The notes: generated by a model not told the origin, from the sequence alone. A stretch of 64,000 nt of DNA from Escherichia coli (GCF_003018235.1 NZ_CP027437.1), one strand, 5' to 3'. Numbered from the stretch's first letter, positions 4,801 through 38,764 are shown. Numbers and translations are program-made.

Positions 4801-7353
4801 TCAGAACAATTCCTGTGCCTCGCCATTATCGATAATGGTCGTTCCCACCTCGTGCACCGCCTGTTGTGTCGGCTGCGTACCTTCGATGAAATACTCTTCG
4901 CGGCTGTTGCCACCATTAGCTAACTGCCCGGTGCTGCGATCGATATTCACCGTCACAATACCCGGCGGCGGCGTCAGCGGCTGCTCCGGCACACCTTCAA
5001 GAACGGCTTTCATATAAGCGTCCCATGCAGGCTGGGCACTCTTGGCACCGCCTTCGTAACCTGAGATCTGATCTTTAATCGCTCCGGAAGCCGTTGTATG
5101 ACCGAGATTACGACGGTGATCATCAAAGCCAATCCAGACCGAGGTCACAACGCCCGGACCGTAACCCGAAAACCACGCATCTTTCGAACTGTTAGTGGTA
5201 CCGGTTTTCCCGCCGATATCGCGACGCTGCAAATCACGACCTGCACGCCAGCCGGTACCCTGCCAGCCTGGCTCACCAAAGATATTGGTGTTCAAAGCAC
5301 TCTTAATCAGGAATGCCAGCGGAGTGTTGATGACGTGCGGTGCGTACTCCTGCGCGCCAGTCTTCGCCACTAACGCCTGATTTGCCTGCTCCAGCTGCGG
5401 CATTGGCACAGAAACATTCTGCTGCTCGCGGGAGATAGCGACATCTTCAACATCGTTATTTTCCAGCACGTTCGATTTCTGCGTATCACCGTAAATTACC
5501 GGAATATCGCATTCCGGGCAGGCTACTTTCGGTTTCGCTTCGAAAATCACGCCGCCCTGATCGTTTTCAATTTTGCTGATAAACCACGGGTCCACCAGGA
5601 AGCCGCCGTTCGCCATGACCGCGTAGCCGCGCGCCACCTGCATTGGGGTGAATGACGCTGAACCCAGCGCCAGCGATTCGGTGTGGACAATGTTTTGCGC
5701 CGGGAAGCCGAAGCGTTGCAGATATTCTGCAGCGTAGTCGACGCCCATCGCCCGCATTGCGCGTACCATCACCACGTTTTTCGACTGGCCCAGTCCCTGA
5801 CGTAAGCGAATTGGACCGGCATACTGCGGTGGTGAGTTCTTCGGCTGCCAGTCAGAACCGGCACCTGCATCCCAGCGGGAAATTGGCACATCGTTCAACA
5901 TACTTGCCAGCGTCAGACCTTTATCCATCGCCGCGGTGTAGAGGAACGGTTTGATGTTGGAACCTACCTGACGCAGTGCCTGGGTGGCGCGGTTAAACTT
6001 GCTCTGATTGAAATCAAAGCCACCGACCAGCGCCATAACGGCACCGTTTTGCGGATTGATCGACACCAGCGCCGAGTTCACTTCCGGCACTTGCGCCAGC
6101 CACCATGCATCGCCAACCTGACGAACCCAGATTTGCTGACCCGTTTGCAGAACATCGGTCACTTTACGCGGCGTCGGTCCCTGCTGAGTATCCGAACGGT
6201 AAGGACGCGCCCAGCGAACGCCTTCCATACTCAATGCGACGGTCGACCCGTCCGCCAGCATCGCCGTCGCTTCCTGAGGATTGGCGCTGGTGACTGCGGC
6301 AGGCAGCAGCGGACCATAGGTCGGCAGCGCCTTCAGCGTATCGGTAATCTTGTTGTTATCCCACGCCGATTCGCCCACCTTCCACAGCACATTTGCCGGG
6401 CCGCGATAGCCGTGGCGCATGTCGTAGTCCAGCACGTTATTACGTACTGCCTGCTGTGCGGCCTGCTGTACTTTGCGGGTGATGGTGGTGTAAATGCGAT
6501 AACCGTCTTCATAGGCACTTTCGCCATAACGGTTATACATCTCCTGGCGCACCATTTCGCTCAGGTACGGCGCAGAGAAAGCAATCTCCGGCGCGTGATA
6601 GTTAGCGTTAATCGCCTCAGTGCGTGTCTGATCGAACTGTTGTTGGGTGATATACCCTTCATCCAGCATCCGCGACAGCACGACGTTACGCCGCGCGACG
6701 GCACGATCCATCGAGTAGAGCGGGTTGAAGGTGGAAGGCGCTTTCGGCAGCCCGGCTATCACCGCCATTTCGTTCAGCGTCAGTTGGTCGACCGTTTTTC
6801 CGAAATAGACTTGTGCCGCAGCACCGACACCATAGGCGCGGTAACCGAGGTAAATCTTGTTCAGATAAAGCTCGAGGATCTCGTCTTTCGTCAGCAACTG
6901 TTCAATGCGAATCGCGAGGAAGACTTCCTTAATCTTACGCATCAGCGTGCGTTCTGGACTGAGGAAGAAGTTTCTCGCCAGCTGCTGGGTAATGGTACTC
7001 GCCCCTTGTGACGCGTGGCCGGAGAACAGCGCCACACTTGCCGCACGGAAGATCCCCACCGGGTCAACGCCGTGATGCTCGTAGAAGCGGCTGTCTTCCG
7101 TCGCGATAAAGGCTTTCACCATCTCCGGCGGGATTTGATCCAACGTAACCGGAATACGACGTTTCTCACCGTATTGAGCAATCAGCTCGCCATCGGCGCT
7201 GTAAATCTGCATCGGAATTTGCAGGCGAACATCTTTTAATGTCGCCACATCCGGCAGTTGTGGCTCGATGTAGCGGTATAGGCCATAAATCGAGCCTGCT
7301 CCCAGCAGAATGCAACAGACTGCAAGGATCAAAAAATACTTTACGAACTTCAC
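4801..7353 (-). CDS. mrcA: Penicillin-binding protein 1A (bifunctional transglycosylase/transpeptidase)
   Basis: ORF track 4801..7377 (858 aa); body matches recalled PBP1a. Annotated protein begins MKFVKYFLILAVCC, which is the GTG at 7353 (850 aa); the ATG at 7377 is an alternative. Confidence 0.93.
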   Translation of the reverse strand: MKFVKYFLILAVCCILLGAGSIYGLYRYIEPQLPDVATLKDVRLQIPMQIYSADGELIAQYGEKRRIPVTLDQIPPEMVKAFIATEDSRFYEHHGVDPVGIFRAASVALFSGHASQGASTITQQLARNFFLSPERTLMRKIKEVFLAIRIEQLLTKDEILELYLNKIYLGYRAYGVGAAAQVYFGKTVDQLTLNEMAVIAGLPKAPSTFNPLYSMDRAVARRNVVLSRMLDEGYITQQQFDQTRTEAINANYHAPEIAFSAPYLSEMVRQEMYNRYGESAYEDGYRIYTTITRKVQQAAQQAVRNNVLDYDMRHGYRGPANVLWKVGESAWDNNKITDTLKALPTYGPLLPAAVTSANPQEATAMLADGSTVALSMEGVRWARPYRSDTQQGPTPRKVTDVLQTGQQIWVRQVGDAWWLAQVPEVNSALVSINPQNGAVMALVGGFDFNQSKFNRATQALRQVGSNIKPFLYTAAMDKGLTLASMLNDVPISRWDAGAGSDWQPKNSPPQYAGPIRLRQGLGQSKNVVMVRAMRAMGVDYAAEYLQRFGFPAQNIVHTESLALGSASFTPMQVARGYAVMANGGFLVDPWFISKIENDQGGVIFEAKPKVACPECDIPVIYGDTQKSNVLENNDVEDVAISREQQNVSVPMPQLEQANQALVAKTGAQEYAPHVINTPLAFLIKSALNTNIFGEPGWQGTGWRAGRDLQRRDIGGKTGTTNSSKDAWFSGYGPGVVTSVWIGFDDHRRNLGHTTASGAIKDQISGYEGGAKSAQPAWDAYMKAVLEGVPEQPLTPPPGIVTVNIDRSTGQLANGGNSREEYFIEGTQPTQQAVHEVGTTIIDNGEAQELF

Positions 7354-16593: not shown

Positions 16594-17590
16594 GCCCATC
16601 GTTTTTAGTGGCGCACAGCCCTCAGGTGAATTGACCATTGGTAACTACATGGGTGCGCTGCGTCAGTGGGTAAACATGCAGGATGACTATCATTGCATTT
16701 ACTGTATCGTTGACCAACACGCGATCACCGTGCGCCAGGATGCACAGAAGCTGCGTAAAGCGACGCTGGATACGCTGGCCTTGTATCTGGCTTGTGGTAT
16801 CGATCCTGAGAAAAGCACCATTTTTGTTCAGTCCCACGTGCCGGAACATGCACAGTTAGGCTGGGCACTGAACTGCTATACCTACTTCGGCGAACTGAGC
16901 CGCATGACGCAGTTTAAAGATAAATCTGCGCGTTATGCCGAGAACATCAACGCTGGTCTGTTTGACTATCCGGTGCTGATGGCTGCGGACATCCTGCTGT
17001 ATCAAACTAATCTGGTACCGGTGGGTGAAGACCAGAAACAGCACCTGGAACTGAGCCGCGATATCGCCCAGCGTTTCAACGCGCTGTATGGCGAGATCTT
17101 TAAAGTGCCGGAGCCGTTTATTCCGAAATCTGGCGCGCGCGTAATGTCGCTGCTGGAGCCGACCAAGAAGATGTCCAAGTCTGACGATAACCGCAATAAC
17201 GTTATCGGCCTGCTGGAAGATCCGAAATCGGTAGTGAAGAAAATCAAACGCGCGGTCACTGACTCCGACGAGCCGCCGGTAGTTCGCTACGATGTGCAGA
17301 ACAAAGCGGGCGTTTCCAACCTGCTGGATATCCTTTCTGCTGTAACGGGCCAGAGCATCCCGGAACTGGAAAAACAGTTCGAAGGCAAGATGTATGGTCA
17401 TCTGAAAGGCGAAGTGGCTGATGCCGTTTCCGGTATGCTGACTGAATTGCAGGAACGCTATCACCGTTTCCGCAATGACGAAGCCTTCCTGCAACAGGTG
17501 ATGAAAGATGGCGCGGAAAAAGCCAGCGCACACGCTTCCCGTACGCTAAAAGCGGTGTACGAAGCGATTGGTTTTGTGGCGAAGCCGTAA
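16586..17590 (+). CDS. trpS: Tryptophan--tRNA ligase
   Basis: 334-aa ORF with class I aaRS motifs ([13 protein letters not shown]-like, KMSKS at KMSKSDD). Confidence 0.96.
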
Positions 17591-17604
17591 TTTAACATTA
17601 ATGC

Positions 17605-17632
17605 CAAAAACCGGGGAAACCCGGTTTTTTTA
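17605..17632 (+). terminator. Rho-independent terminator of the aroK...trpS transcription unit
   Basis: aaaaaccgggg-aaa-ccccggttttttt immediately after the trpS stop. Confidence 0.8.
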
Positions 17633-17750
17633 TCCTCTTTTTGCAATAATCCGAAAAAATGTGAAGCGCCTCGCCGTTTCCACATCTCGCAGTTGCCACT
17701 TATCTTCATTTTTATGAAGATATAAATATTCACTTTATTGAAAATTTACT

Positions 17751-18656
17751 ATGCGTCGAACGTTTATCAAAAAAGAAGGCGTCGTCATCACGACACTGGC
17801 CCGTTATTTGTTGGGTGAAAAGTGCGGTAATCGACTGAAAACCATAGATGAGCTGGCAACTGAATGCCGTTCATCCGTTGGCCTGACGCAGGCCGCGTTG
17901 AAAACGCTGGAATCAAGCGGAGCGATACGGATTGAACGCCGTGGGCGCAATGGCAGTTATCTGGTCGAGATGGATAACAAAGCATTGCTGACTCATGTGG
18001 ATATCAACAACGTGGTATGTGCGATGCCCTTGCCCTATACCCGTTTGTACGAAGGCCTGGCGAGCGGATTGAAAGCCCAATTTGATGGCATTCCTTTTTA
18101 CTATGCGCACATGCGCGGCGCGGATATTCGCGTGGAGTGTCTGCTTAATGGCGTGTATGACATGGCGGTGGTTTCCCGACTGGCGGCGGAAAGTTATCTC
18201 ACGCAAAAAGGGTTATGCCTCGCGCTGGAGTTGGGGCCGCACACCTACGTTGGCGAGCACCAGTTGATTTGCCGTAAAGGCGAGTCCGCAAACGTGAAGC
18301 GCGTGGGGCTGGATAACCGTTCGGCGGATCAGAAAATCATGACCGATGTCTTTTTTGGCGATAGTGATGTGGAACGTGTCGATCTCTCTTATCACGAGAG
18401 TTTACAACGCATTGTTAAAGGCGATGTCGATGCGGTTATCTGGAACGTGGTGGCGGAAAACGAACTGACCATGCTGGGATTAGAAGCGACGCCGCTCACA
18501 GACGATCCGCGATTTTTACAGGCCACCGAAGCCGTGGTTTTGACGCGAGTCGATGATTACCCGATGCAACAATTGCTGCGTGCAGTTGTTGATAAACAGG
18601 CCCTGCTTGCCCATCAACAACGAGTGGTCAGTGGGGAACAGGAACCCAGTTATTAA
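17751..18656 (+). CDS. yhfZ: Putative DNA-binding transcriptional regulator YhfZ
   Basis: 301-aa ORF; first gene of the yhfZ–yhfS cluster, directly after trpS as in E. coli. Confidence 0.85.
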   Translation: MRRTFIKKEGVVITTLARYLLGEKCGNRLKTIDELATECRSSVGLTQAALKTLESSGAIRIERRGRNGSYLVEMDNKALLTHVDINNVVCAMPLPYTRLYEGLASGLKAQFDGIPFYYAHMRGADIRVECLLNGVYDMAVVSRLAAESYLTQKGLCLALELGPHTYVGEHQLICRKGESANVKRVGLDNRSADQKIMTDVFFGDSDVERVDLSYHESLQRIVKGDVDAVIWNVVAENELTMLGLEATPLTDDPRFLQATEAVVLTRVDDYPMQQLLRAVVDKQALLAHQQRVVSGEQEPSY

Positions 18657-18672
18657 ACCAAAGGCATCTGAA

Positions 18673-19035
18673 ATGGAAACCAGACTCAACCTGCTTTGCG
18701 ATGCAGGCGTTATTGATAAGGACATCTGCAAAGGCATGATGCAGGTCGTCAATGTCCTGGAAACAGAGTGCCATCTACCGGTGCGCAGTGAGCAAGGAAC
18801 GATGGCGATGACACATATGGCGAGTGCACTGATGCGCAGTCGCCGTGGTGAAGAAATAGAGCCGCTGGACGCCGAATTGCTGGCAGAACTGGCGCAATCC
18901 AGCCACTGGCAAGCCGTTGTGCAATTGCATCAGGTGTTGTTGAAGGAATTTACACTGGAAGTTAACCCGTGTGAAGAAGGCTATTTGCTGGCCAACCTTT
19001 ATGGATTATGGATGGCTGCTAACGAAGAGGTTTGA
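18673..19035 (+). CDS. yhfY: PRD-domain protein YhfY
   Basis: ORF frame 18553..19035; likely start METRLNLLCDAGVIDKDICKGM at ATG 18673 gives 120 aa. Confidence 0.8.
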   Translation: METRLNLLCDAGVIDKDICKGMMQVVNVLETECHLPVRSEQGTMAMTHMASALMRSRRGEEIEPLDAELLAELAQSSHWQAVVQLHQVLLKEFTLEVNPCEEGYLLANLYGLWMAANEEV

Positions 19036-19118
19036 AGCTCCCGACAAATCCACGTCGCACAACCTAAATATTCAAAAAAATGAATATTTAATTCAAGGAA
19101 CAGAAACGAGGCAACAAG

Positions 19119-20282
19119 ATGTTTGTAGAAGCATTGAAACGCCAGAACCCGGCGCTAATTTCCGCCGCACTAAGCTTGTGGCAAAAGGGCAAGATCGCCC
19201 CGGACAGCTGGGTGATCGACGTGGATCAGATACTGGAAAACGGTAAGCGGCTGATTGAGACGGCGCGGCTTTACGGCATTGAACTGTATCTGATGACTAA
19301 GCAGTTTGGTCGTAATCCGTGGCTGGCGGAAAAACTGCTGCCATTAGGCTACAGCGGCATTGTGGCGGTGGATTACAAAGAGGCGCGAGTCATGCGCCGC
19401 GCCGGTTTGCCGGTGGCGCATCAGGGGCATCTGGTACAAATCCCTTGTCATCAGGTGGCTGACGCCGTTGCACAGGGCACCGACGTCATCACCGTGTTTA
19501 CTCTCGACAAAGCGCGGGAAGTTTCTGCGGCAGCGGTGAAGGCCGGACGTGTGCAGTCTGTGCTGCTCAAAGTTTATAGCGACGATGATTTTCTTTATCC
19601 GGGGCAGGAGAGCGGTTTTGTACAGCATTCGCTGCACGAGGTGGTTGCTGAAATTAAGAAACTGCCGGGGTTGCATTTAGCTGGACTAACCCATTTCCCT
19701 TGCCTGCTTTGGGATGAGGCTGCCGGGAAAGTTTTGCCGACACCGAATCTTCACACGCTGGTACAGGCACGGGATCAACTGGCGAAATCTGGTATTGCGA
19801 TTGAGCAACTGAACGCGCCTTCAGCGACCAGCTGCACTTCGCTGCCATTACTGGCGGAATACGGTGTGACTCATGCCGAACCCGGTCATGCGCTGACGGG
19901 CACTATTCCGGCAAACCAGCAGGGCGATCAGCCTGAACGTATCGCGATGCTCTGGTTAAGTGAAATCTCCCATCATTTCCGTGGCGACAGCTACTGCTAC
20001 GGCGGCGGTTACTACCGTCGTGGTCATGCGCAACATGCGCTGGTGTTTACGCCAGAAAATCAAAAGATTACTGAAACCAATCTCAAAACTGTGGATGACA
20101 GCAGTATCGACTACACCCTGCCGCTGGCAGGCGAGTTTCCGGTAAGCAGTGCAGTAGTGCTCTGTTTTCGCACGCAGATTTTTGTCACCCGTAGCGATGT
20201 GGTGTTGGTGTCTGGTATTCATCGTGGCGAACCGGAAATCGTCGGTCGTTATGACAGCCTCGGCAACCCTCTGGAGGCGTAA
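19119..20282 (+). CDS. yhfX: Putative PLP-dependent alanine-racemase-fold protein YhfX
   Basis: 387-aa ORF; position and length match yhfX. Confidence 0.82.
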   Translation: MFVEALKRQNPALISAALSLWQKGKIAPDSWVIDVDQILENGKRLIETARLYGIELYLMTKQFGRNPWLAEKLLPLGYSGIVAVDYKEARVMRRAGLPVAHQGHLVQIPCHQVADAVAQGTDVITVFTLDKAREVSAAAVKAGRVQSVLLKVYSDDDFLYPGQESGFVQHSLHEVVAEIKKLPGLHLAGLTHFPCLLWDEAAGKVLPTPNLHTLVQARDQLAKSGIAIEQLNAPSATSCTSLPLLAEYGVTHAEPGHALTGTIPANQQGDQPERIAMLWLSEISHHFRGDSYCYGGGYYRRGHAQHALVFTPENQKITETNLKTVDDSSIDYTLPLAGEFPVSSAVVLCFRTQIFVTRSDVVLVSGIHRGEPEIVGRYDSLGNPLEA

Positions 20283-21509
20283 ATGGCGCGATTTGTGGTG
20301 TTAGTGATTGATAGCTTTGGCGTAGGGGCAATGAAAGATGTCACGTTGGTGCGTCCGCAGGATGCCGGGGCGAATACCTGTGGTCACATCCTGAGCCAGT
20401 TGCCGCATTTGCAGCTATCAGCGCTGGAGAAGCTGGGGCTAATCAACGCATTGGGTTATGCACCAGGTGATATGCAACCGTCAGATTCCGCAACCTGGGG
20501 GGGGGCAGAACTGCAACATGAAGGTGGCGATACCTTTATGGGGCATCAGGAAATTTTAGGCACGCGCCCGTTACCGCCGCTGCGGATGCCTTTTCGCGAT
20601 GTGATTGACCGTGTTGAGCAGGCATTAGTATCCGCCGGTTGGCAGGTGGAGCGCCGTGGCGATGATCTGCAATTTCTGTGGGTCAATCAGGCGGTTGCGA
20701 TTGGCGATAATCTCGAGGCGGATTTAGGCCAGGTCTATAACATCACCGTCAATCTCTCTGTGATCTCTTTTGACGACGCAATCAAAATTGGTCGTATCGT
20801 GCGTGAGCAGGTACAGGTCGGTCGGGTCATTACATTTGGCGGCCTGTTAACTGACAGTCAACGCATTCTCGATGCCGCAGAAAGTAAAGAAGGGCGCTTT
20901 ATTGGCATTAATGCGCCGCGTTCAGGCGCTTATGACAACGGCTTCCAGGTCGTGCATATGGGCTACGGTGTTGATGAAAAAGTGCAGGTGCCGCAAAAAC
21001 TGTATGAAGCGGGCGTGCCAACCGTGCTGGTGGGTAAGGTGGCGGATATCGTCAGCAATCCTTATGGCGTGAGCTGGCAAAACCTGGTGGATAGCCAGCG
21101 GATTATGGATATCACCCTCGACGAATTTAACACGCATCCGACGGCGTTTATTTGCACCAATATCCAGGAAACCGACCTCGCTGGTCACGCGGAAGACGTC
21201 GCACGTTATGCCGAACGTTTGCAGGTCGTTGACCGTAACCTTGCCCGGCTTATTGAGGCGATGCAGCCAGATGATTGCCTGGTCGTGATGGCGGATCACG
21301 GTAACGATCCGACCATTGGTCACAGCCACCATACCCGCGAAGTGGTGCCAGTGCTGGTTTATCAGCAAGGGATGGTCGCTACGCAGCTCGGTGTGCGCAC
21401 CACGCTTTCTGATGTGGGGGCTACCGTGTGTGAATTTTTCCGTGCGCCACCGCCACAAAATGGTCGCTCTTTTCTTTCCTCCCTCCGGTTTGCAGGAGAC
21501 ACCCTATGA
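20283..21509 (+). CDS. yhfW: Putative phosphopentomutase-family metalloenzyme YhfW
   Basis: 408-aa ORF starting one base after the yhfX stop. Confidence 0.82.
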
Positions 21510-22384
21510 GTTTTGATCCGACGGGCTACACCCTCGCCCATGAGCATCTGCATATTGATCTCTCCGGCTTTAAAAACAACGTGGACTGCCGCCTTGATCA
21601 GTATGCGTTCATTTGCCAGGAAATGAACGACCTGATGGCCCAGGGCGTGCGTAATGTGATTGAGATGACCAACCGTTATATGGGGCGCAATGCGCAATTT
21701 ATGCTCGATGTAATGCGCGAAACCGGCATCAACGTGGTGGCCTGTACCGGTTATTACCAGGACGCGTTTTTCCCGCAACATGTGGCGACCCGCAGCGTGC
21801 AGGAACTGGCGCAAGAGATGGTCGATGAAATTGAGCAGGGTATCGATGGCACTGACCTGAAAGCCGGGATCATCGCGGAGATTGGCTCCAGCGAAGGGAA
21901 GATTACGCCGCTGGAAGAGAAGGTGTTTATTGCCGCCGCGCTGGCACATAACCAGACCGGACGCCCGATCTCCACACATACCTCTTTTAGCACGATGGGG
22001 CTGGAACAACTGGCTCTGTTGCAAGCCCACGGAGTTGATCTTTCGCGCGTCACCGTTGGTCACTGCGATCTGAAAGACAACCTCGACAACATTTTGAAGA
22101 TGATCGATCTCGGCGCGTATGTGCAGTTCGACACCATCGGCAAGAACAGTTACTACCCGGACGAAAAGCGCATTGCGATGCTCCATGCGCTACGTGACCG
22201 TGGGTTGCTGAACCGCGTCATGCTGTCGATGGATATTACGCGCCGCTCCCATTTAAAAGCCAACGGTGGTTATGGCTATGACTATTTATTGACCACCTTT
22301 ATTCCGCAATTGCGCCAGTCAGGATTCAGTCAGGCCGATGTGGATGTGATGTTACGTGAAACTCCCTCTCAATTTTTCCAATAA
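21506..22384 (+). CDS. php: Phosphotriesterase homology protein (amidohydrolase superfamily)
   Basis: 292-aa [25 protein letters not shown] (HxH metal-binding motif); overlaps yhfW stop. Confidence 0.88.
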
Positions 22385-22394
22385 GGACAGACTC

Positions 22395-22748
22395 ATGAAA
22401 AAGATTGGTGTTGCAGGCTTACAGCGTGAGCAGATTAAAAAAACCATTGAAGCGACGGCTCCTGGCTGTTTTGAAGTTTTCATTCACAACGACATGGAAG
22501 CGGCAATGAAAGTGAAATCCGGGCAACTGGATTACTACATCGGCGCGTGTAATACCGGTGCGGGCGCGGCATTGTCGATTGCCATCGCGGTGATTGGCTA
22601 TAACAAAAGTTGCACCATTGCCAAACCAGGCATTAAAGCGAAAGACGAACATATCGCCAAAATGATCGCCGAAGGGAAAGTGGCGTTTGGGCTTTCCGTT
22701 GAGCATGTCGAACACGCGATTCCGATGCTGATTAACCATCTGAAATAA
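22395..22748 (+). CDS. yhfU: DUF2620-family protein YhfU
   Basis: ORF frame 22356..22748; likely start MKKIGVAGLQREQIKK gives 117 aa. Confidence 0.8.
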   Translation: MKKIGVAGLQREQIKKTIEATAPGCFEVFIHNDMEAAMKVKSGQLDYYIGACNTGAGAALSIAIAVIGYNKSCTIAKPGIKAKDEHIAKMIAEGKVAFGLSVEHVEHAIPMLINHLK

Positions 22749-22759
22749 AAGGCACGACT

Positions 22760-24064
22760 ATGGATCTGTATATTCAGATTATCGTGGTGGCGTGCCTGAC
22801 GGGTATGACATCGCTTCTGGCGCATCGCTCGGCGGCTGTTTTTCATGACGGTATCCGCCCGATCCTGCCACAACTGATTGAAGGCTATATGAACCGTCGC
22901 GAGGCGGGGAGTATCGCTTTTGGTCTGAGCATTGGTTTTGTGGCCTCGGTGGGGATCTCGTTTACCCTGAAAACCGGGCTGCTCAACGCATGGTTACTCT
23001 TTCTTCCTACCGATATCCTCGGCGTACTGGCGATAAACAGCCTGATGGCGTTTGGTCTTGGCGCTATCTGGGGCGTGTTGATCCTTACTTGCCTGTTGCC
23101 GGTAAACCAGCTGCTGACCGCGCTACCGGTGGATGTATTAGGTAGCCTGGGGGAATTAAGCTCACCGGTGGTTTCAGCTTTTGCACTGTTCCCGTTGGTG
23201 GCGATTTTCTACCAGTTTGGCTGGAAGCAAAGTCTGATCGCCGCCGTGGTGGTACTGATGACCCGTGTGGTGGTAGTGCGCTATTTCCCGCATCTCAATC
23301 CGGAATCCATCGAAATCTTTATTGGCATGGTGATGCTGCTGGGGATCGCGATAACTCACGACCTGCGTCATCGTGATGAAAATGATATTGATGCCAGCGG
23401 GCTTTCGGTGTTTGAAGAACGCACGTCGCGGATTATCAAAAACTTACCGTATATCGCTATTGTCGGGGCGCTGATTGCCGCCGTTGCCAGCATGAAGATT
23501 TTTGCTGGCAGTGAAGTGTCGATCTTCACACTGGAGAAAGCATATTCCGCAGGCGTAACGCCGGAACAATCACAAACGCTGATTAACCAGGCAGCTCTGG
23601 CGGAATTTATGCGCGGGCTGGGTTTTGTACCGTTGATTGCCACCACCGCGTTAGCCACTGGTGTGTATGCAGTTGCGGGCTTTACCTTTGTTTATGCGGT
23701 GGGCTATCTCTCGCCGAATCCGATGGTTGCAGCGGTATTAGGCGCAGTGGTTATTTCGGCGGAAGTCTTGCTGCTTCGTTCGATCGGCAAATGGCTGGGG
23801 CGCTACCCGTCGGTGCGTAATGCGTCGGATAACATCCGTAATGCCATGAATATGCTGATGGAAGTGGCGTTGCTGGTCGGTTCGATTTTCGCAGCAATTA
23901 AAATGGCGGGTTATACCGGATTCTCTATCGCAGTTGCCATTTACTTCCTCAACGAATCCCTGGGCCGTCCGGTACAGAAAATGGCGGCACCAGTCGTAGC
24001 CGTAATGATCACCGGTATTCTGCTGAATGTTCTTTACTGGCTTGGCCTGTTCGTTCCGGCTTAA
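22760..24064 (+). CDS. yhfT: Putative inner-membrane transporter YhfT
   Basis: 434-aa highly hydrophobic ORF with multiple predicted TM helices. Confidence 0.85.
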   Translation: MDLYIQIIVVACLTGMTSLLAHRSAAVFHDGIRPILPQLIEGYMNRREAGSIAFGLSIGFVASVGISFTLKTGLLNAWLLFLPTDILGVLAINSLMAFGLGAIWGVLILTCLLPVNQLLTALPVDVLGSLGELSSPVVSAFALFPLVAIFYQFGWKQSLIAAVVVLMTRVVVVRYFPHLNPESIEIFIGMVMLLGIAITHDLRHRDENDIDASGLSVFEERTSRIIKNLPYIAIVGALIAAVASMKIFAGSEVSIFTLEKAYSAGVTPEQSQTLINQAALAEFMRGLGFVPLIATTALATGVYAVAGFTFVYAVGYLSPNPMVAAVLGAVVISAEVLLLRSIGKWLGRYPSVRNASDNIRNAMNMLMEVALLVGSIFAAIKMAGYTGFSIAVAIYFLNESLGRPVQKMAAPVVAVMITGILLNVLYWLGLFVPA

Positions 24065-24075
24065 GGAAGGCACCT

Positions 24076-25161
24076 ATGAAGACGTTTCCTCTGCAAAGCC
24101 TGACGATTATTGAGGCGCAGCAAAAGCAGTTTGCGCTGGTGGATAGCATTTGTCGCCATTTTCCTGGTAGCGAATTTCTTACCTGCGGTGATTTGGGATT
24201 AACGCCGGGACTGAATCAACCGTGCATTACCCAGCGTGTGGAACAGGTGCTGGCTGATGCATTTCACGCACAGGCTGCGGCGCTGGTACAGGGCGCGGGT
24301 ACTGGCGCGATCCGTGCGGCGTTGGCGGCTTTGCTCAAACCGGGGCAGCGTCTTCTGGTGCATGACGCGCCGGTTTACCCGACGACTCAGGTCATTATTG
24401 AGCAGATGGGGCTGACGCTTATCACTGCTGATTTCAATGACCTGTTGGCACTGAAGCAGGTTGTCGACGAGCAACAACCAGATGCCGCGCTGGTGCAGCA
24501 TACGCGCCAGCAGCCGCAGGACGGGTACATTCTGGCAGATGTGCTGGCAACGTTGCGCTCGGCTGGCGTTCCTGCATTAACCGATGACAACTATGCGGTG
24601 ATGAAAGTGGCGCGAATTGGCTGCGAATGCGGAGCAAATGTCTCGACTTTTTCCTGCTTCAAGCTGTTTGGGCCGGAGGGTGTTGGCGCGGTGGTAGGTG
24701 ATGCCGATGTTATTAGTCGGATTCGCGCCACGCTCTATTCCGGCGGCAGCCAGATTCAGGGCGCTCAGGCGCTGGAAGTCTTGCGTGGGCTGGTGTTTGC
24801 GCCAGTGATGCACGCGGTGCAGGCGGGGGTATCTGAACGGTTGCTGGCTTTGCTTAACGGCGGCGCGGTGGCGGAAGTGAAAAGCGCCGTCATTGCCAAT
24901 GCACAGTCGAAGGTATTGATTGTGGAGTTTCATCAGCCGATTGCCGTCAGAGTGCTGGAAGAGGCGCAGAAACTCGGTGCCTTGCCTTACCCGGTTGGTG
25001 CAGAGTCGAAATATGAAATCCCGCCGCTCTTTTATCGACTTTCCGGAACGTTTCGCCAGGCGAATCCGCAGTTAGAACATTGCGCGATTCGCATTAACCC
25101 AAATCGCAGCGGTGAAGAGACGATATTGCGGATCTTGCGTGAAAGTATTGCCAGCATTTAA
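24076..25161 (+). CDS. yhfS: Putative PLP-dependent enzyme YhfS
   Basis: 361-aa ORF; last gene of the cluster. Confidence 0.83.
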   Translation: MKTFPLQSLTIIEAQQKQFALVDSICRHFPGSEFLTCGDLGLTPGLNQPCITQRVEQVLADAFHAQAAALVQGAGTGAIRAALAALLKPGQRLLVHDAPVYPTTQVIIEQMGLTLITADFNDLLALKQVVDEQQPDAALVQHTRQQPQDGYILADVLATLRSAGVPALTDDNYAVMKVARIGCECGANVSTFSCFKLFGPEGVGAVVGDADVISRIRATLYSGGSQIQGAQALEVLRGLVFAPVMHAVQAGVSERLLALLNGGAVAEVKSAVIANAQSKVLIVEFHQPIAVRVLEEAQKLGALPYPVGAESKYEIPPLFYRLSGTFRQANPQLEHCAIRINPNRSGEETILRILRESIASI

Positions 25162-25203
25162 TCGTTGTAAACGATATTTTTGAAAAGAATGCAGAAACAA
25201 ATA

Positions 25204-25227
25204 CGCCCTCGGATTACTCCGAGGGCG
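25204..25227. terminator. Bidirectional terminator hairpin between convergent yhfS and yhfL
   Basis: cgccctcgg-attact-ccgagggcg stem-loop in the ~110-bp yhfS–yhfL spacer. Confidence 0.6.
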
Positions 25228-25271
25228 TCAGGCAATTAAACCGGCGTTAGCCGATTTCTGTCAGAGACTTA

Positions 25272-25436
25272 CTATGCAGTCGGACCGCAACCGCCAATGA
25301 TTTTAGAAATAGAAATTGCCGGGTGCAGCAGGTAGTCGTAAGAGCAGTTCTTATCACGGTTTTCAATATGACCAGTACATGCAGTTAACGTAGCCAGTAC
25401 TGCGCCTACCAGTGCAACTTTAATAAATTTGTTCAT
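25272..25436 (-). CDS. yhfL: Small lipoprotein YhfL
   Basis: Not in ORF track (too short). Reverse-strand translation MNKFIKVALVGAVLATLTACTGHIENRDKNCSYDYLLHPAISISKIIGGCGPTA, 54 aa, lipobox LTAC; matches recalled YhfL. Confidence 0.85.
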   Translation of the reverse strand: MNKFIKVALVGAVLATLTACTGHIENRDKNCSYDYLLHPAISISKIIGGCGPTA

Positions 25437-25682
25437 TTACATTCCCTATGTATTATATATTGATTAATATTCATTGATTATATGAATATAAGCAGACTGC
25501 TCATTAAGAACGATACAGGAATATTTAATTAGCGTCAGTGAGTGAATGGCTTAATTTTGTAAGTCGCTGTAACGGTGAATATAACCCATTAGCAGATAAT
25601 ATTTATTAAGGGGTTATGTTTTATTTGCTGAATATATAAAAAGAGTCATTAAGAAGGCCAGAATTCTCTGGCCTGGGTTACA

Positions 25683-27056
25683 TTAATGGTTGGAGAACCA
25701 GTTCAGTTTATCGCGCAGGCCAACAACCCGACCAATAATAATTAGCGATGGACTGTTCATTTGCTGCGCCAGTTCGCCCAGCTGCGAGAGTGTACCGTCA
25801 ATCACGCGCTGCGTGACTGCCGTTCCGTTTTCGACAATTGCCACCGGCATTTCGCCAGGCATACCGTGTTCAATCAGCTTTTGCTGAATAGTCGCGGCCT
25901 GATTCAACCCCATATAGAACACCAGCGTCTGTTTTTCTGCCGCCAGGTTTTCCCAGTCCAGTTCGCCACCGGTTTTTAAGTGTCCGGTAATTAAGCGTAC
26001 GCTCTGGGCATAATCGCGATGCGTGAGCGGAATACCCGAATAGGCAGAGCAACCAGAAGCTGCGGTAATACCCGGAACCACCGAGAACGGAATACCCGCG
26101 TTGCACAGTGTTTCCAGCTCTTCGCCACCACGGCCAAAAATAAACGGATCGCCGCCTTTCAGCCGCACCACGCGTTTGCCTTTTTGCGCTTCCCGTAGCA
26201 GGATCTGGTTTATCTCTTCCTGCGGTACGCAGTGGTATCCCGCGCGTTTGCCGACGAAAACGCGATCAGCATCGCGGCGTACCAGATTCATAATATCGTC
26301 AGAAACCAGACGGTCGTAAACCACCACATCTGCCTGCTGAATTTGTTGCAGACCCTTCAGTGTCAGCAGCCCGGCATCGCCCGGACCTGCGCCAACCAGC
26401 ACCACTTCACCGCGATGATCGAGCGGTTCATTGATTAACTGTTCGGTCGTTTCAGTAATGGCTTTCTGATCGTTGTTTGCCAGCGACTGCGCCAGGCGGT
26501 CGTTAACGAACAATTTCTCCCAGAAACGGCGACGCTCACCCATCGTGGCGAACTGTTGTTTCACTCGCCCGCGTAATTGCCCGGCGTATTTCGCTACCTG
26601 GCCCAGATGCAACGGCAGCAGTGATTCGAGTTTTTCGCGCAACAGGCGTGCCAGAACCGGAGAGGTGCCGCCAGAGGAGACCGCGACCATGAGCGGTGAG
26701 CGGTCAATAATCGACGGCATAATAAAGCTGGCGGCTTTCGGCGCATCGACCACGTTACAGAAGATGCGACGAGCTTCAGCGGCTTCACTGACGCGCTGGT
26801 TAAGCGCGTCATCATCCGTCGCTGCAATCGCCAGCCAGCAGGTGTCGAGAAGGCTTTCATCAAATGGCCCTTCGACGAGGGTTAACATGCCTGCATCTGC
26901 CCATGCGGTGAACTGTGGAATAAACGCTAATGCATTCACCGTTAAGCGAGCGCCTGCGTCTAACAGCAACCTTGCTTTGCGTTCCGCGACATCACCACCG
27001 CCGACAATCAGACAGTCGCGATCGCGTAATTGGCAAAATATAGGCAAATGATCCAC
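25683..27056 (-). CDS. cysG: Siroheme synthase (multifunctional)
   Basis: 457-aa [35 protein letters not shown]... matches CysG; last gene of nirBDC-cysG. Confidence 0.96.
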
Positions 27057-38131: not shown

Positions 38132-38764
38132 TTAACGAGTGCCGTAAACGACGATGGTTTTACCGTGTGCGGAGATCAGGTTCTGATCTTCCAGCATCTT
38201 CAGAATGCGTCCCACGGTTTCACGAGAACAGCCGACAATCTGACCAATTTCCTGACGGGTAATTTTGATTTGCATACCGTCCGGGTGAGTCATAGCATCC
38301 GGTTGTTTTGCCAGGTTCAGCAGAGTCTGTGCAATGCGGCCCGTCACATCGAGGAACGCCAGGTTGCCCACTTTCTCTGAAGTGACTTGCAGACGACGCG
38401 CCATCTGTGCAGACAGACGCATCAGAATGTCCGGGTTTACCTGAATCAATTGGCGAAATTTTTTGTACGAAATTTCAGCCACTTCACAGGCGGTTTTCGC
38501 ACGTACCCATGCGCTACGTTCCTGGCCCTCTTCAAACAGGCCCAGTTCGCCAATAAAATCACCCTGATTCAGATAGGAGAGGATCATTTCTTTACCCTCT
38601 TCGTCTTTGATCAGCACTGCCACAGAGCCTTTAACGATGTAGTACAGCGTTTCCGCTTTTTCACCCTGGTGAATAAGCGTGCTCTTGGATGGGTACTTAT
38701 GAATGTGGCAATGAGACAAGAACCATTCGAGAGTCGGGTCTGTTTGCGGTTTGCCAAGCACCAT
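38132..38764 (-). CDS. crp: cAMP receptor protein (global transcriptional regulator)
   Basis: 210-aa [53 protein letters not shown]... matches CRP. Confidence 0.98.

Follow-up and report, generated by a model that had tools for sequence, protein, structure and literature searches.

Locus and conservation of the yhf cluster

We analyzed the yhfZ–yhfS gene cluster in a 64-kb stretch of Escherichia coli DNA (hereafter, the window), whose coordinates are used throughout; the cluster lies on the + strand. The open reading frame (ORF) listing and RefSeq annotation of near-identical E. coli loci revealed eight intact, full-length, co-oriented genes that span exactly positions 17751-25161, the same start and end given for an eight-gene cluster in a preliminary description of the window. 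In the RefSeq E. coli genomes that match the region, the annotation gives these gene models unchanged in length. The first two genes are yhfZ (17751-18656, 301 amino acids) and yhfY (18673-19035, 120 amino acids), whose mechanical ORF starts earlier, at 18553. These are followed by yhfX (19119-20282, 387 amino acids), yhfW (20283-21509, 408 amino acids), php (21506-22384, 292 amino acids), yhfU (22395-22748, 117 amino acids; mechanical ORF start at 22356), yhfT (22760-24064, 434 amino acids) and yhfS (24076-25161, 361 amino acids).

The intergenic spacings from yhfZ to yhfS are 16, 83, 0, -4, 10, 11 and 11 nucleotides (nt), and six of the seven junctions measure 16 nt or less. The tight, co-oriented packing described earlier was thus confirmed, but the several overlaps of 1-4 nt reported with it were not: the sole overlap is the 4-nt ATGA shared by yhfW and php, and yhfX and yhfW abut. 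The K-12 copy has two overlaps, of 1 nt and 4 nt. At 20280-20285 the yhfX stop and yhfW start lie side by side (TAA ATG), where K-12 has its 1-nt overlap, so the junction differs by a single base and both frames are kept.

We examined the distribution of the cluster by scanning about 100,000 species' genomes, one genome per species, with a 14-sequence YhfT alignment. The scan identified 481 confirmed stretches with YhfT relatives, and gene order was compared across the best 80 loci among them (individual loci, metagenomic ones included, carry the prefix L below). Across these 80 loci, the same gene families co-occur, in shuffled order, in Enterobacterales, Vibrionaceae, Fusobacteriota and Bacillota. 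With each yhf gene denoted by its last letter and php by P, the order is Z-Y-X-W-P-U-T-S in Enterobacterales, Z-Y-P-U-T-X-W in Vibrionaceae, Z-Y-P-U-T-(amidase-like gene)-S-X-W in Sebaldella, and Z-Y-U-T-P-(S)-X-W, or the same with W-X at the end, in Bacillota. Metagenomic homologues at 25-36% YhfT identity retain the PRD, DUF2620, YhfT, phosphotriesterase (PTE), YhfX and Metalloenzyme families together, and clustering of all neighbouring ORFs yielded no further widely recurring family. This cross-phylum synteny strengthens the case for a single functional unit, and it is highly likely that the eight genes form one conserved, co-regulated module for uptake and catabolism. A unit of this kind, acting on a phosphorylated amino compound, had been proposed from the window alone; the recurring gene set supports the proposal, with the same families travelling together across four phyla.

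Within the module, yhfU and yhfT constitute the invariant core. The yhfU gene always adjoins yhfT, and in some genomes the pair stands alone. The enzyme gene most tightly tied to this pair is yhfX, and Enterovibrio carries only yhfU, yhfT, yhfX and yhfW. The yhfS gene occurs in 34 of the 65 loci that are 15 kb or longer and is absent from Vibrionaceae (L061-L081), Yersinia and some Clostridia, while yhfW has been lost in most Yersinia, with Y. nurmii alone keeping it among those seen (L048, L050, L052-L055, L058, L059). Both genes are therefore dispensable in some lineages, and yhfS is accessory. A distant cluster (L096, 11815-16353) carries PRD, DUF2620, YhfT, PTE, YhfS and YhfX genes without yhfW, followed on the same strand by three ATP-grasp genes and a major facilitator superfamily (MFS) transporter gene.

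Within E. coli, the cluster is carried by 5057-5065 of 5426 complete genomes (about 93%), leaving about 7% without it. The best whole-region identity is 98.1% to E. coli genomes and about 95.8% to K-12, and a very widespread E. coli protein has exactly the sequence of the window's YhfT. Comparison of the window with K-12 revealed purifying selection on all eight genes, with ratios of nonsynonymous to synonymous divergence (dN/dS) of 0-0.19. The most constrained genes are the transporter pair (dN/dS 0 for yhfU and 0.008 for yhfT). Given their adjacency and constraint, we conclude that YhfT and YhfU work as a pair. The yhfS allele of the window is unusual: it is matched at 99% identity or higher in 2 of the 5426 complete genomes and at 90-95% in 4754. 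Its dS against K-12 reaches 0.32, where the neighbouring trpS has 0.074, and its dN/dS is 0.07. The rarity of the allele and its high dS suggest old allelic lineages or an import by recombination beside the point at which the fructoselysine (frl) operon is inserted in some strains.

Predicted operators and promoters, and boundaries of the cluster

Three palindromes on the + strand have TTCA-N6-TGAA as their common core, its spacer being A/T-rich. O1 (17701-17722; TATCTTCAT-TTTT-ATGAAGATA) is a perfect 9-bp inverted repeat upstream of yhfZ, and O2 (17725-17746; AATATTCA-CTTTAT-TGAAAATT) ends 4 nt before the yhfZ ATG. O3 (19065-19090; TAAATATTCA-AAAAAA-TGAATATTTA), a perfect 10-bp inverted repeat, lies in the gap between yhfY and yhfX. 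Three of the four TTCA-N6-TGAA sites in the window thus fall in the two yhf promoter gaps. The fourth, at 38660-38673, has a GC-rich spacer (CCCTGG) unlike those of the yhf sites and is probably a chance match.

These sites are conserved well beyond the window. The yhfY–yhfX gap is 100% identical to K-12, compared with 95-97% for the flanking genes. Among Escherichia, Citrobacter, Klebsiella, Pluralibacter and Trabulsiella, O3 hardly varies, and slightly changed versions recur in Buttiauxella, Cedecea, Ewingella and Yersinia. In Vibrio, Photobacterium and Sebaldella the motif stands upstream of yhfZ; the Clostridia have a variant form, TGTAC-A-rich-GTACA. Overall, the core occurs within 150 nt upstream of the yhfZ homologue in 47 of 69 loci, a 62-fold excess over background in species that are related rather than independent. 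Judged from its sequence and placement, the palindrome is probably the YhfZ operator.

The position of O3 affects how the transcription of the cluster should be viewed. The preliminary description had treated the eight genes as one operon, and their shared orientation and short gaps are in keeping with this. A simple single unit is less apt, because the 83-nt gap between yhfY and yhfX holds a conserved palindrome, which makes two co-regulated units likelier. The conserved operator-like site in this gap points to a second regulated promoter, and yhfZY and yhfXW-php-UTS probably either are neighbouring units that share a repressor or belong to one operon in which a regulated promoter lies internally. 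No terminator and no structured RNA were detected in the 83-nt gap (fold against shuffles, z = -1.17). A table of database operons lists yhfX–yhfS as six genes, without yhfZ and yhfY (PMC4448311).

A half-conserved CRP-like site, TGTGA-N6-TCGCC, recognised by consensus match only, lies upstream of the yhfZ palindromes at 17660-17675 (+). The sequence TGTGA-N6-TCnCn is position-conserved in Citrobacter, Klebsiella, Pluralibacter, Lelliottia, Trabulsiella, Cedecea and others. With TTGCCA (17693-17698) as the -35 element, the site would lie near -61.5 of a putative TTGCCA-N17-GAAGAT promoter, which suggests CRP control. A riboswitch or attenuator was considered and rejected, since Rfam gave no match at the gathering threshold over 17300-25800 and the yhfY–yhfX gap folds no better than shuffled sequences. 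The "attenuator" listed upstream of yhfZ in K-12 corresponds to a bacterial interspersed mosaic element (BIME) repeat (PMC2965389) and was likewise set aside, this repeat being absent from the window. The trpS–yhfZ gap (17591-17750) measures 160 nt here versus 290 nt in K-12, the extra K-12 sequence being the BIME repeat.

The cluster is bounded on both sides. The trpS intrinsic terminator (17606-17629, +; AAAAACCGGG-GAAA-CCCGGTTTTT followed by a T-run), a perfect 10-bp inverted repeat, insulates it from upstream transcription. Its other end is marked by a GC-rich hairpin (25203-25228) that separates yhfS from convergent yhfL and has its T-run on the minus strand. Directly downstream of yhfS are yhfL (minus strand, about 25269-25436) and then cysG, with frlABCDR absent between yhfS and yhfL (region 25162-25682). 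K-12 has the fructoselysine operon frlABCDR at this position, and both arrangements occur among E. coli genomes. We rejected a functional link to the frl operon, as the adjacency is confined to K-12-like strains and occurs neither here nor in other genera.

Predicted activities of the eight proteins

The preliminary description had read the cluster as encoding a regulator (YhfZ), a PRD-domain protein (YhfY), a pyridoxal phosphate (PLP) enzyme of the racemase fold (YhfX), a phosphopentomutase-family metalloenzyme (YhfW), a phosphotriesterase-like amidohydrolase (Php), a DUF protein (YhfU), a multi-transmembrane protein (YhfT) and a further PLP-dependent enzyme (YhfS). Profile and structure comparisons upheld these assignments. 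YhfZ scored 373.5 bits against the NCBIfam equivalog NF041241 (YhfZ_full), above the cutoff of 260, and contains the Pfam domains HTH_41 and YhfZ_C. In profile searches against the Protein Data Bank (PDB), its N-terminal winged helix-turn-helix (HTH) matched FadR, CodY and GntR chains, while its C-terminal sensor domain corresponded to PDB 2OZZ and weakly resembled a periplasmic amino-acid-binding protein. YhfZ therefore belongs to the GntR-type winged-HTH regulators, in a YhfZ subfamily.

The evidence for YhfY is weak for the single sequence and clear for the family. The window copy gave a marginal match to Pfam PRD (E = 0.0088), 16 of 29 family members match it at E ≤ 1e-3, and the family profile matched the LicT PRD at 3e-10. 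Four residues (His48, Ala52, Arg55 and Glu101) are invariant in the family alignment, and His48 is aligned on the phosphorylatable histidine of the LicT THL motif; the second PRD histidine position is Asn in E. coli YhfY. With its helical domain and conserved histidine, YhfY is a PRD protein. At 120 amino acids and with a single PRD alone, it is not a BglG/LicT-type antiterminator or a PRD activator. We also considered YhfY as an EIIA-Lac-like helical phosphocarrier and discarded this idea, as hhalign comparison with the EIIA of a neighbouring Vibrio phosphotransferase system (PTS) revealed no relationship.

YhfU belongs to DUF2620 and adopts the RpiB/LacAB fold. The family alignment contains an invariant Cys52 in the loop G-A-C-x-T/S-G-x-G-x-A, and in an hhalign comparison with E. 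coli RpiB, whose sequence was verified against PDB 1NN4, the Cys and Thr of this loop align with the catalytic residues Cys66 and Thr68. The catalytic set of E. coli RpiB comprises Asp9/His10, Cys66/Thr68, His99/Asn100 and Arg133/Arg137. YhfU keeps only the Cys-x-Thr pair of this set and lacks Asp9/His10, His99/Asn100, Arg133/Arg137 and the C-terminal helix, indicating that it is not a canonical isomerase. It also falls below the Pfam LacAB_rpiB threshold (E = 0.16), outside full membership of the RpiB/LacAB isomerases. Compared with these isomerases, YhfU is shorter by about 30 residues and has a membrane protein as its constant partner. Some DUF2620 members match Pfam Gly_rich_SFCGS below threshold. 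The family is rare, with 305 representatives at 50% identity among 1.84 billion proteins. YhfT, the partner of YhfU, is a polytopic membrane protein (PF10797) and putative permease, for which no relative was found among solved structures.

The four enzymes retain their catalytic residues. YhfX is a distant fold-type III PLP enzyme of the Ala_racemase_N fold (PDB 4KBX) with an invariant Lys61. Among solved structures, the families nearest to YhfX are alanine racemase (4e-5) and D-threonine aldolase (7e-4), and its best NCBIfam match is the ornithine racemase Orr (5e-8; 32 bits against a cutoff of 480). YhfS is a fold-type I PLP enzyme (PDB 4J8L), nearest to the lyases of Cys/Met metabolism, with an invariant Lys196 in an S-x-x-K motif.

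YhfW belongs to the alkaline-phosphatase superfamily and is a phosphopentomutase-like Mn/Thr phosphomutase. In architecture, Thr nucleophile motif (GDT..GH) and metal-ligand motifs it agrees with DeoB, but it is no DeoB orthologue: scores stayed below the deoB cutoffs (141 against 341 bits for TIGR01696 and 178 against 256 for PRK05362), the cap domain that sets specificity is divergent, and good alignment is confined to the C-terminal core. YhfW matched PRK12383 end to end (1-408 of 408) with 733 bits; this model is named "phosphopentomutase", although we know of no tested activity behind the name.

Php is a binuclear-metal hydrolase of the PTE family (PDB 1BF6, 4LEF), scoring 651 bits against a cutoff of 486 for PRK09875, and its crystal structure has been available since 1998. 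The solved structures nearest to it are those of phosphotriesterase-like lactonases, and its relatives also include phospho-sugar lactonases. With such enzymes (SsoPox, Dr0930 and Lmo2620; E 1e-38 to 1e-29) Php has the PTE fold and binuclear metal site in common, but it falls far below the equivalog cutoffs, with 97 against 630 bits (8e-28) for the phospho-furanose lactonase model and 101 against 500 for the OPH model. Php, YhfX and YhfS all lie below every equivalog cutoff for characterised enzymes. Overexpression of php rescues a ΔpdxB strain as well as pdxB does, through a route that makes 2-oxo-3-hydroxy-4-phosphobutanoate (PMC3010111).

A candidate uptake and catabolic pathway

The neighbours of the cluster in other lineages provide clues to its substrate. 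An HPr gene lies about 10-55 nt after yhfW in three Clostridia, and an Enzyme I gene about 25 nt after it in a fourth, all on the same strand. In Vibrionaceae, a cellobiose-type EIIB/EIIC/EIIA operon and a DUF7916 gene stand beside the yhf cluster (L061, 4258-7153; L070, 17150-21293; L071; L078, 3127-7214; L079), and an EIIC gene ends one metagenomic yhf cluster (L012). In four Bacillales, nagB follows the last cluster gene by about 15-115 nt on the same strand, its product scoring 270 bits against an equivalog cutoff of 237. A Cof-type sugar phosphatase (two loci) and the amidase-like gene of Sebaldella are occasional neighbours. As to the Vibrionaceae loci themselves, the DUF7916 protein is weakly DeoC/LacD-aldolase-like, Photobacterium has a second yhfZ paralogue next to a cellobiose-type PTS, and V. 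ezurae and V. halioticoli add a porin-like gene.

The enzymes narrow the substrate further. The two PLP enzymes need a primary amine, the phosphomutase needs a phosphate ester, and the relatives of Php include phospho-sugar lactonases, which together make uptake, perhaps coupled to phosphorylation, of an amine-bearing sugar, sugar-acid or lactone derivative the best-supported picture. Our best guess for the substrate class is a PTS-linked amino-sugar, 2-amino-2-deoxy-aldonate or -lactone derivative from the gut or from decaying biomass. The explanation we favour combines the conserved module with a specific mechanism and this substrate class, and we assign it a probability of roughly 55%; for the specific mechanism and the substrate class taken alone, our confidence is low to moderate.

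According to the favoured explanation, YhfZ would bind TTCA-N6-TGAA at the promoter regions of yhfZ (two sites) and yhfX (one site) until a metabolite in its sensor domain releases it, and the CRP-like site would add catabolite control. YhfY would couple the system to the phosphorylation state of the PTS via His48. YhfT would act as the permease and YhfU, with its RpiB fold and Cys loop, as its cytoplasmic partner, which may either phosphorylate the incoming substrate in the manner of an EIIB or trap it by isomerisation. The resulting compound would be phosphorylated and would carry a primary amine next to a carboxylate, or be an amino sugar. Php could then hydrolyse a lactone or ester bond of the phosphorylated intermediate, YhfX could epimerise or cleave at the amino-bearing carbon, and YhfW could shift the phosphate to the position that central metabolism needs. 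Where present, the accessory YhfS may take off the amine by elimination or transamination.

Several observations weigh against this explanation. Because yhfW and yhfS are missing in some lineages, the pathway is not rigid, and the PTS and NagB neighbours occur in a minority of lineages only. Moreover, an aldose-amine product, as nagB implies, is not easily reconciled with a route through an amino-aldonate. A sigma-70 promoter scan found no good promoter in either gap, so the promoter positions given above are tentative. Everything beyond the conserved, co-regulated module is inference.

The alternative that survives best concerns transport. YhfT could be an ion-coupled secondary carrier and YhfU a cytosolic RpiB-type isomerase using Cys52 and Thr54, with the phosphate supplied by an unlinked kinase or by import of a pre-phosphorylated compound; the PRD, HPr and Enzyme I would then be regulatory only. 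We consider this possible, if rather unlikely. Against it stand the loss of the remaining catalytic and phosphate-binding residues and the sub-threshold LacAB_rpiB match. In addition, yhfU stays beside yhfT in places that lack neighbouring enzyme genes, as would be more natural for part of a transporter than for an enzyme of the pathway. On the most novel view, YhfY, YhfU and YhfT might form a new phosphotransferase-type uptake system in which phosphate would pass from HPr~P to His48, then to YhfU Cys52 and on to the substrate crossing YhfT. The SFCGS/DUF4310-4312 clusters would be its sister family, and the other enzymes would constitute a new route for a phosphorylated amino-sugar acid or lactone. 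This proposal is doubtful, and we rate its chances as small.

It is considerably less probable that the cluster serves plain degradation of an amino acid or D-amino acid of the ornithine or lysine type, with YhfX as racemase, YhfS as lyase or aminotransferase and side roles for the enzymes resembling those of sugar phosphates. The Orr match of YhfX, the resemblance of YhfS to Cys/Met-metabolism lyases, the amino-acid-binding likeness of the YhfZ sensor domain and the fructoselysine neighbour in K-12 would all fit, but the protein matches lie far below family cutoffs, and the frl operon is missing from the window and from many E. coli, so this adjacency is not conserved. Under such a scheme, a phosphomutase, a PTE-family hydrolase, a PRD protein and HPr, Enzyme I and NagB neighbours would be unexpected, and yhfS is dispensable in half of the lineages. 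Least probable of all is a cryptic, decaying or non-catabolic gene set, engaged for instance in repairing metabolites or in making and exporting a product: neither a growth phenotype nor an inducer has been described, the known phenotypes are scattered and indirect (biofilm and nitric oxide, antibiotic survival, lycopene), some E. coli lack the cluster and its synonymous divergence is high, but eight intact ORFs under purifying selection, retention in 93% of E. coli and across phyla, and the catabolic hallmarks of a sensor-repressor, a CRP-like site and PTS and NagB neighbours all speak against it.

The yhf cluster has long been catalogued in E. coli and is no new discovery in itself. The preliminary description had called it known but functionally unresolved, and papers from 2010 to 2026 and PDB titles agree: Php is termed of "unknown function" (PMC3010111), YhfW an "uncharacterized/putative mutase" (PMC7730263, PMC12924614) and YhfS "uncharacterized" (PMC11227560), and the entries 4KBX, 4J8L and 2OZZ are titled "uncharacterized" or "hypothetical". 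In a full-text literature search, neither the eight genes nor the SFCGS/DUF4310-4312 system had a function assigned in any paper found, and only indirect phenotypes came up. What is new here is the predicted YhfZ operator, the probable two-unit architecture, the invariant YhfU–YhfT pair, the suggested PTS connection and the accessory status of yhfS and yhfW. Present in about 93% of complete E. coli genomes, the cluster is among the larger unexplained blocks of the best-studied bacterium. A cross-phylum module, a predictable operator and a transporter pair without a characterised relative make the problem tractable. Loss of yhfZ should turn the cluster on, opening the way to a search for the substrate. 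If the proposed YhfY–YhfU–YhfT relay is true, it would add a new PTS family; otherwise, the cluster would be an ordinary catabolic island.

Among known systems, PTS-linked operons for the catabolism of sugar derivatives with PRD regulators, such as bgl/lic (LicT) and the Salmonella dga (D-glucosaminate) operon, share several features with yhf. Common to them are a PRD module with a conserved phosphorylatable histidine and, in some clusters, general PTS proteins; further parallels, predicted for yhf, are a PLP enzyme whose substrate is a phosphorylated intermediate of the amino-sugar type and repressor or activator control combined with CRP control. In contrast to these operons, yhf lacks canonical EIIA, EIIB and EIIC, YhfY carries no RNA- or DNA-binding domain, and the DNA-binding regulator is a separate GntR-type protein. 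No described pathway has its enzyme set (PTE hydrolase, phosphomutase and fold-type III PLP enzyme). As a whole, yhf comes closest to the EF_0829/AHA_3910-type cluster, which comprises a PRD protein, a Gly-rich SFCGS protein, DUF4310/4311/4312 membrane proteins, a SelA-like PLP enzyme and an amidohydrolase (TIGR03577-03583). Both clusters combine a small PRD protein, a small protein with a Cys/Gly loop and one or more membrane proteins with PLP and amidohydrolase-superfamily enzymes, and the only NCBIfam match of YhfY is the EF_0829 PRD family. However, the Pfam families differ for every component, and the matches lie below cutoffs. The yhf cluster belongs to no described operon, and what it resembles is a PTS-linked, repressor-controlled catabolic operon.

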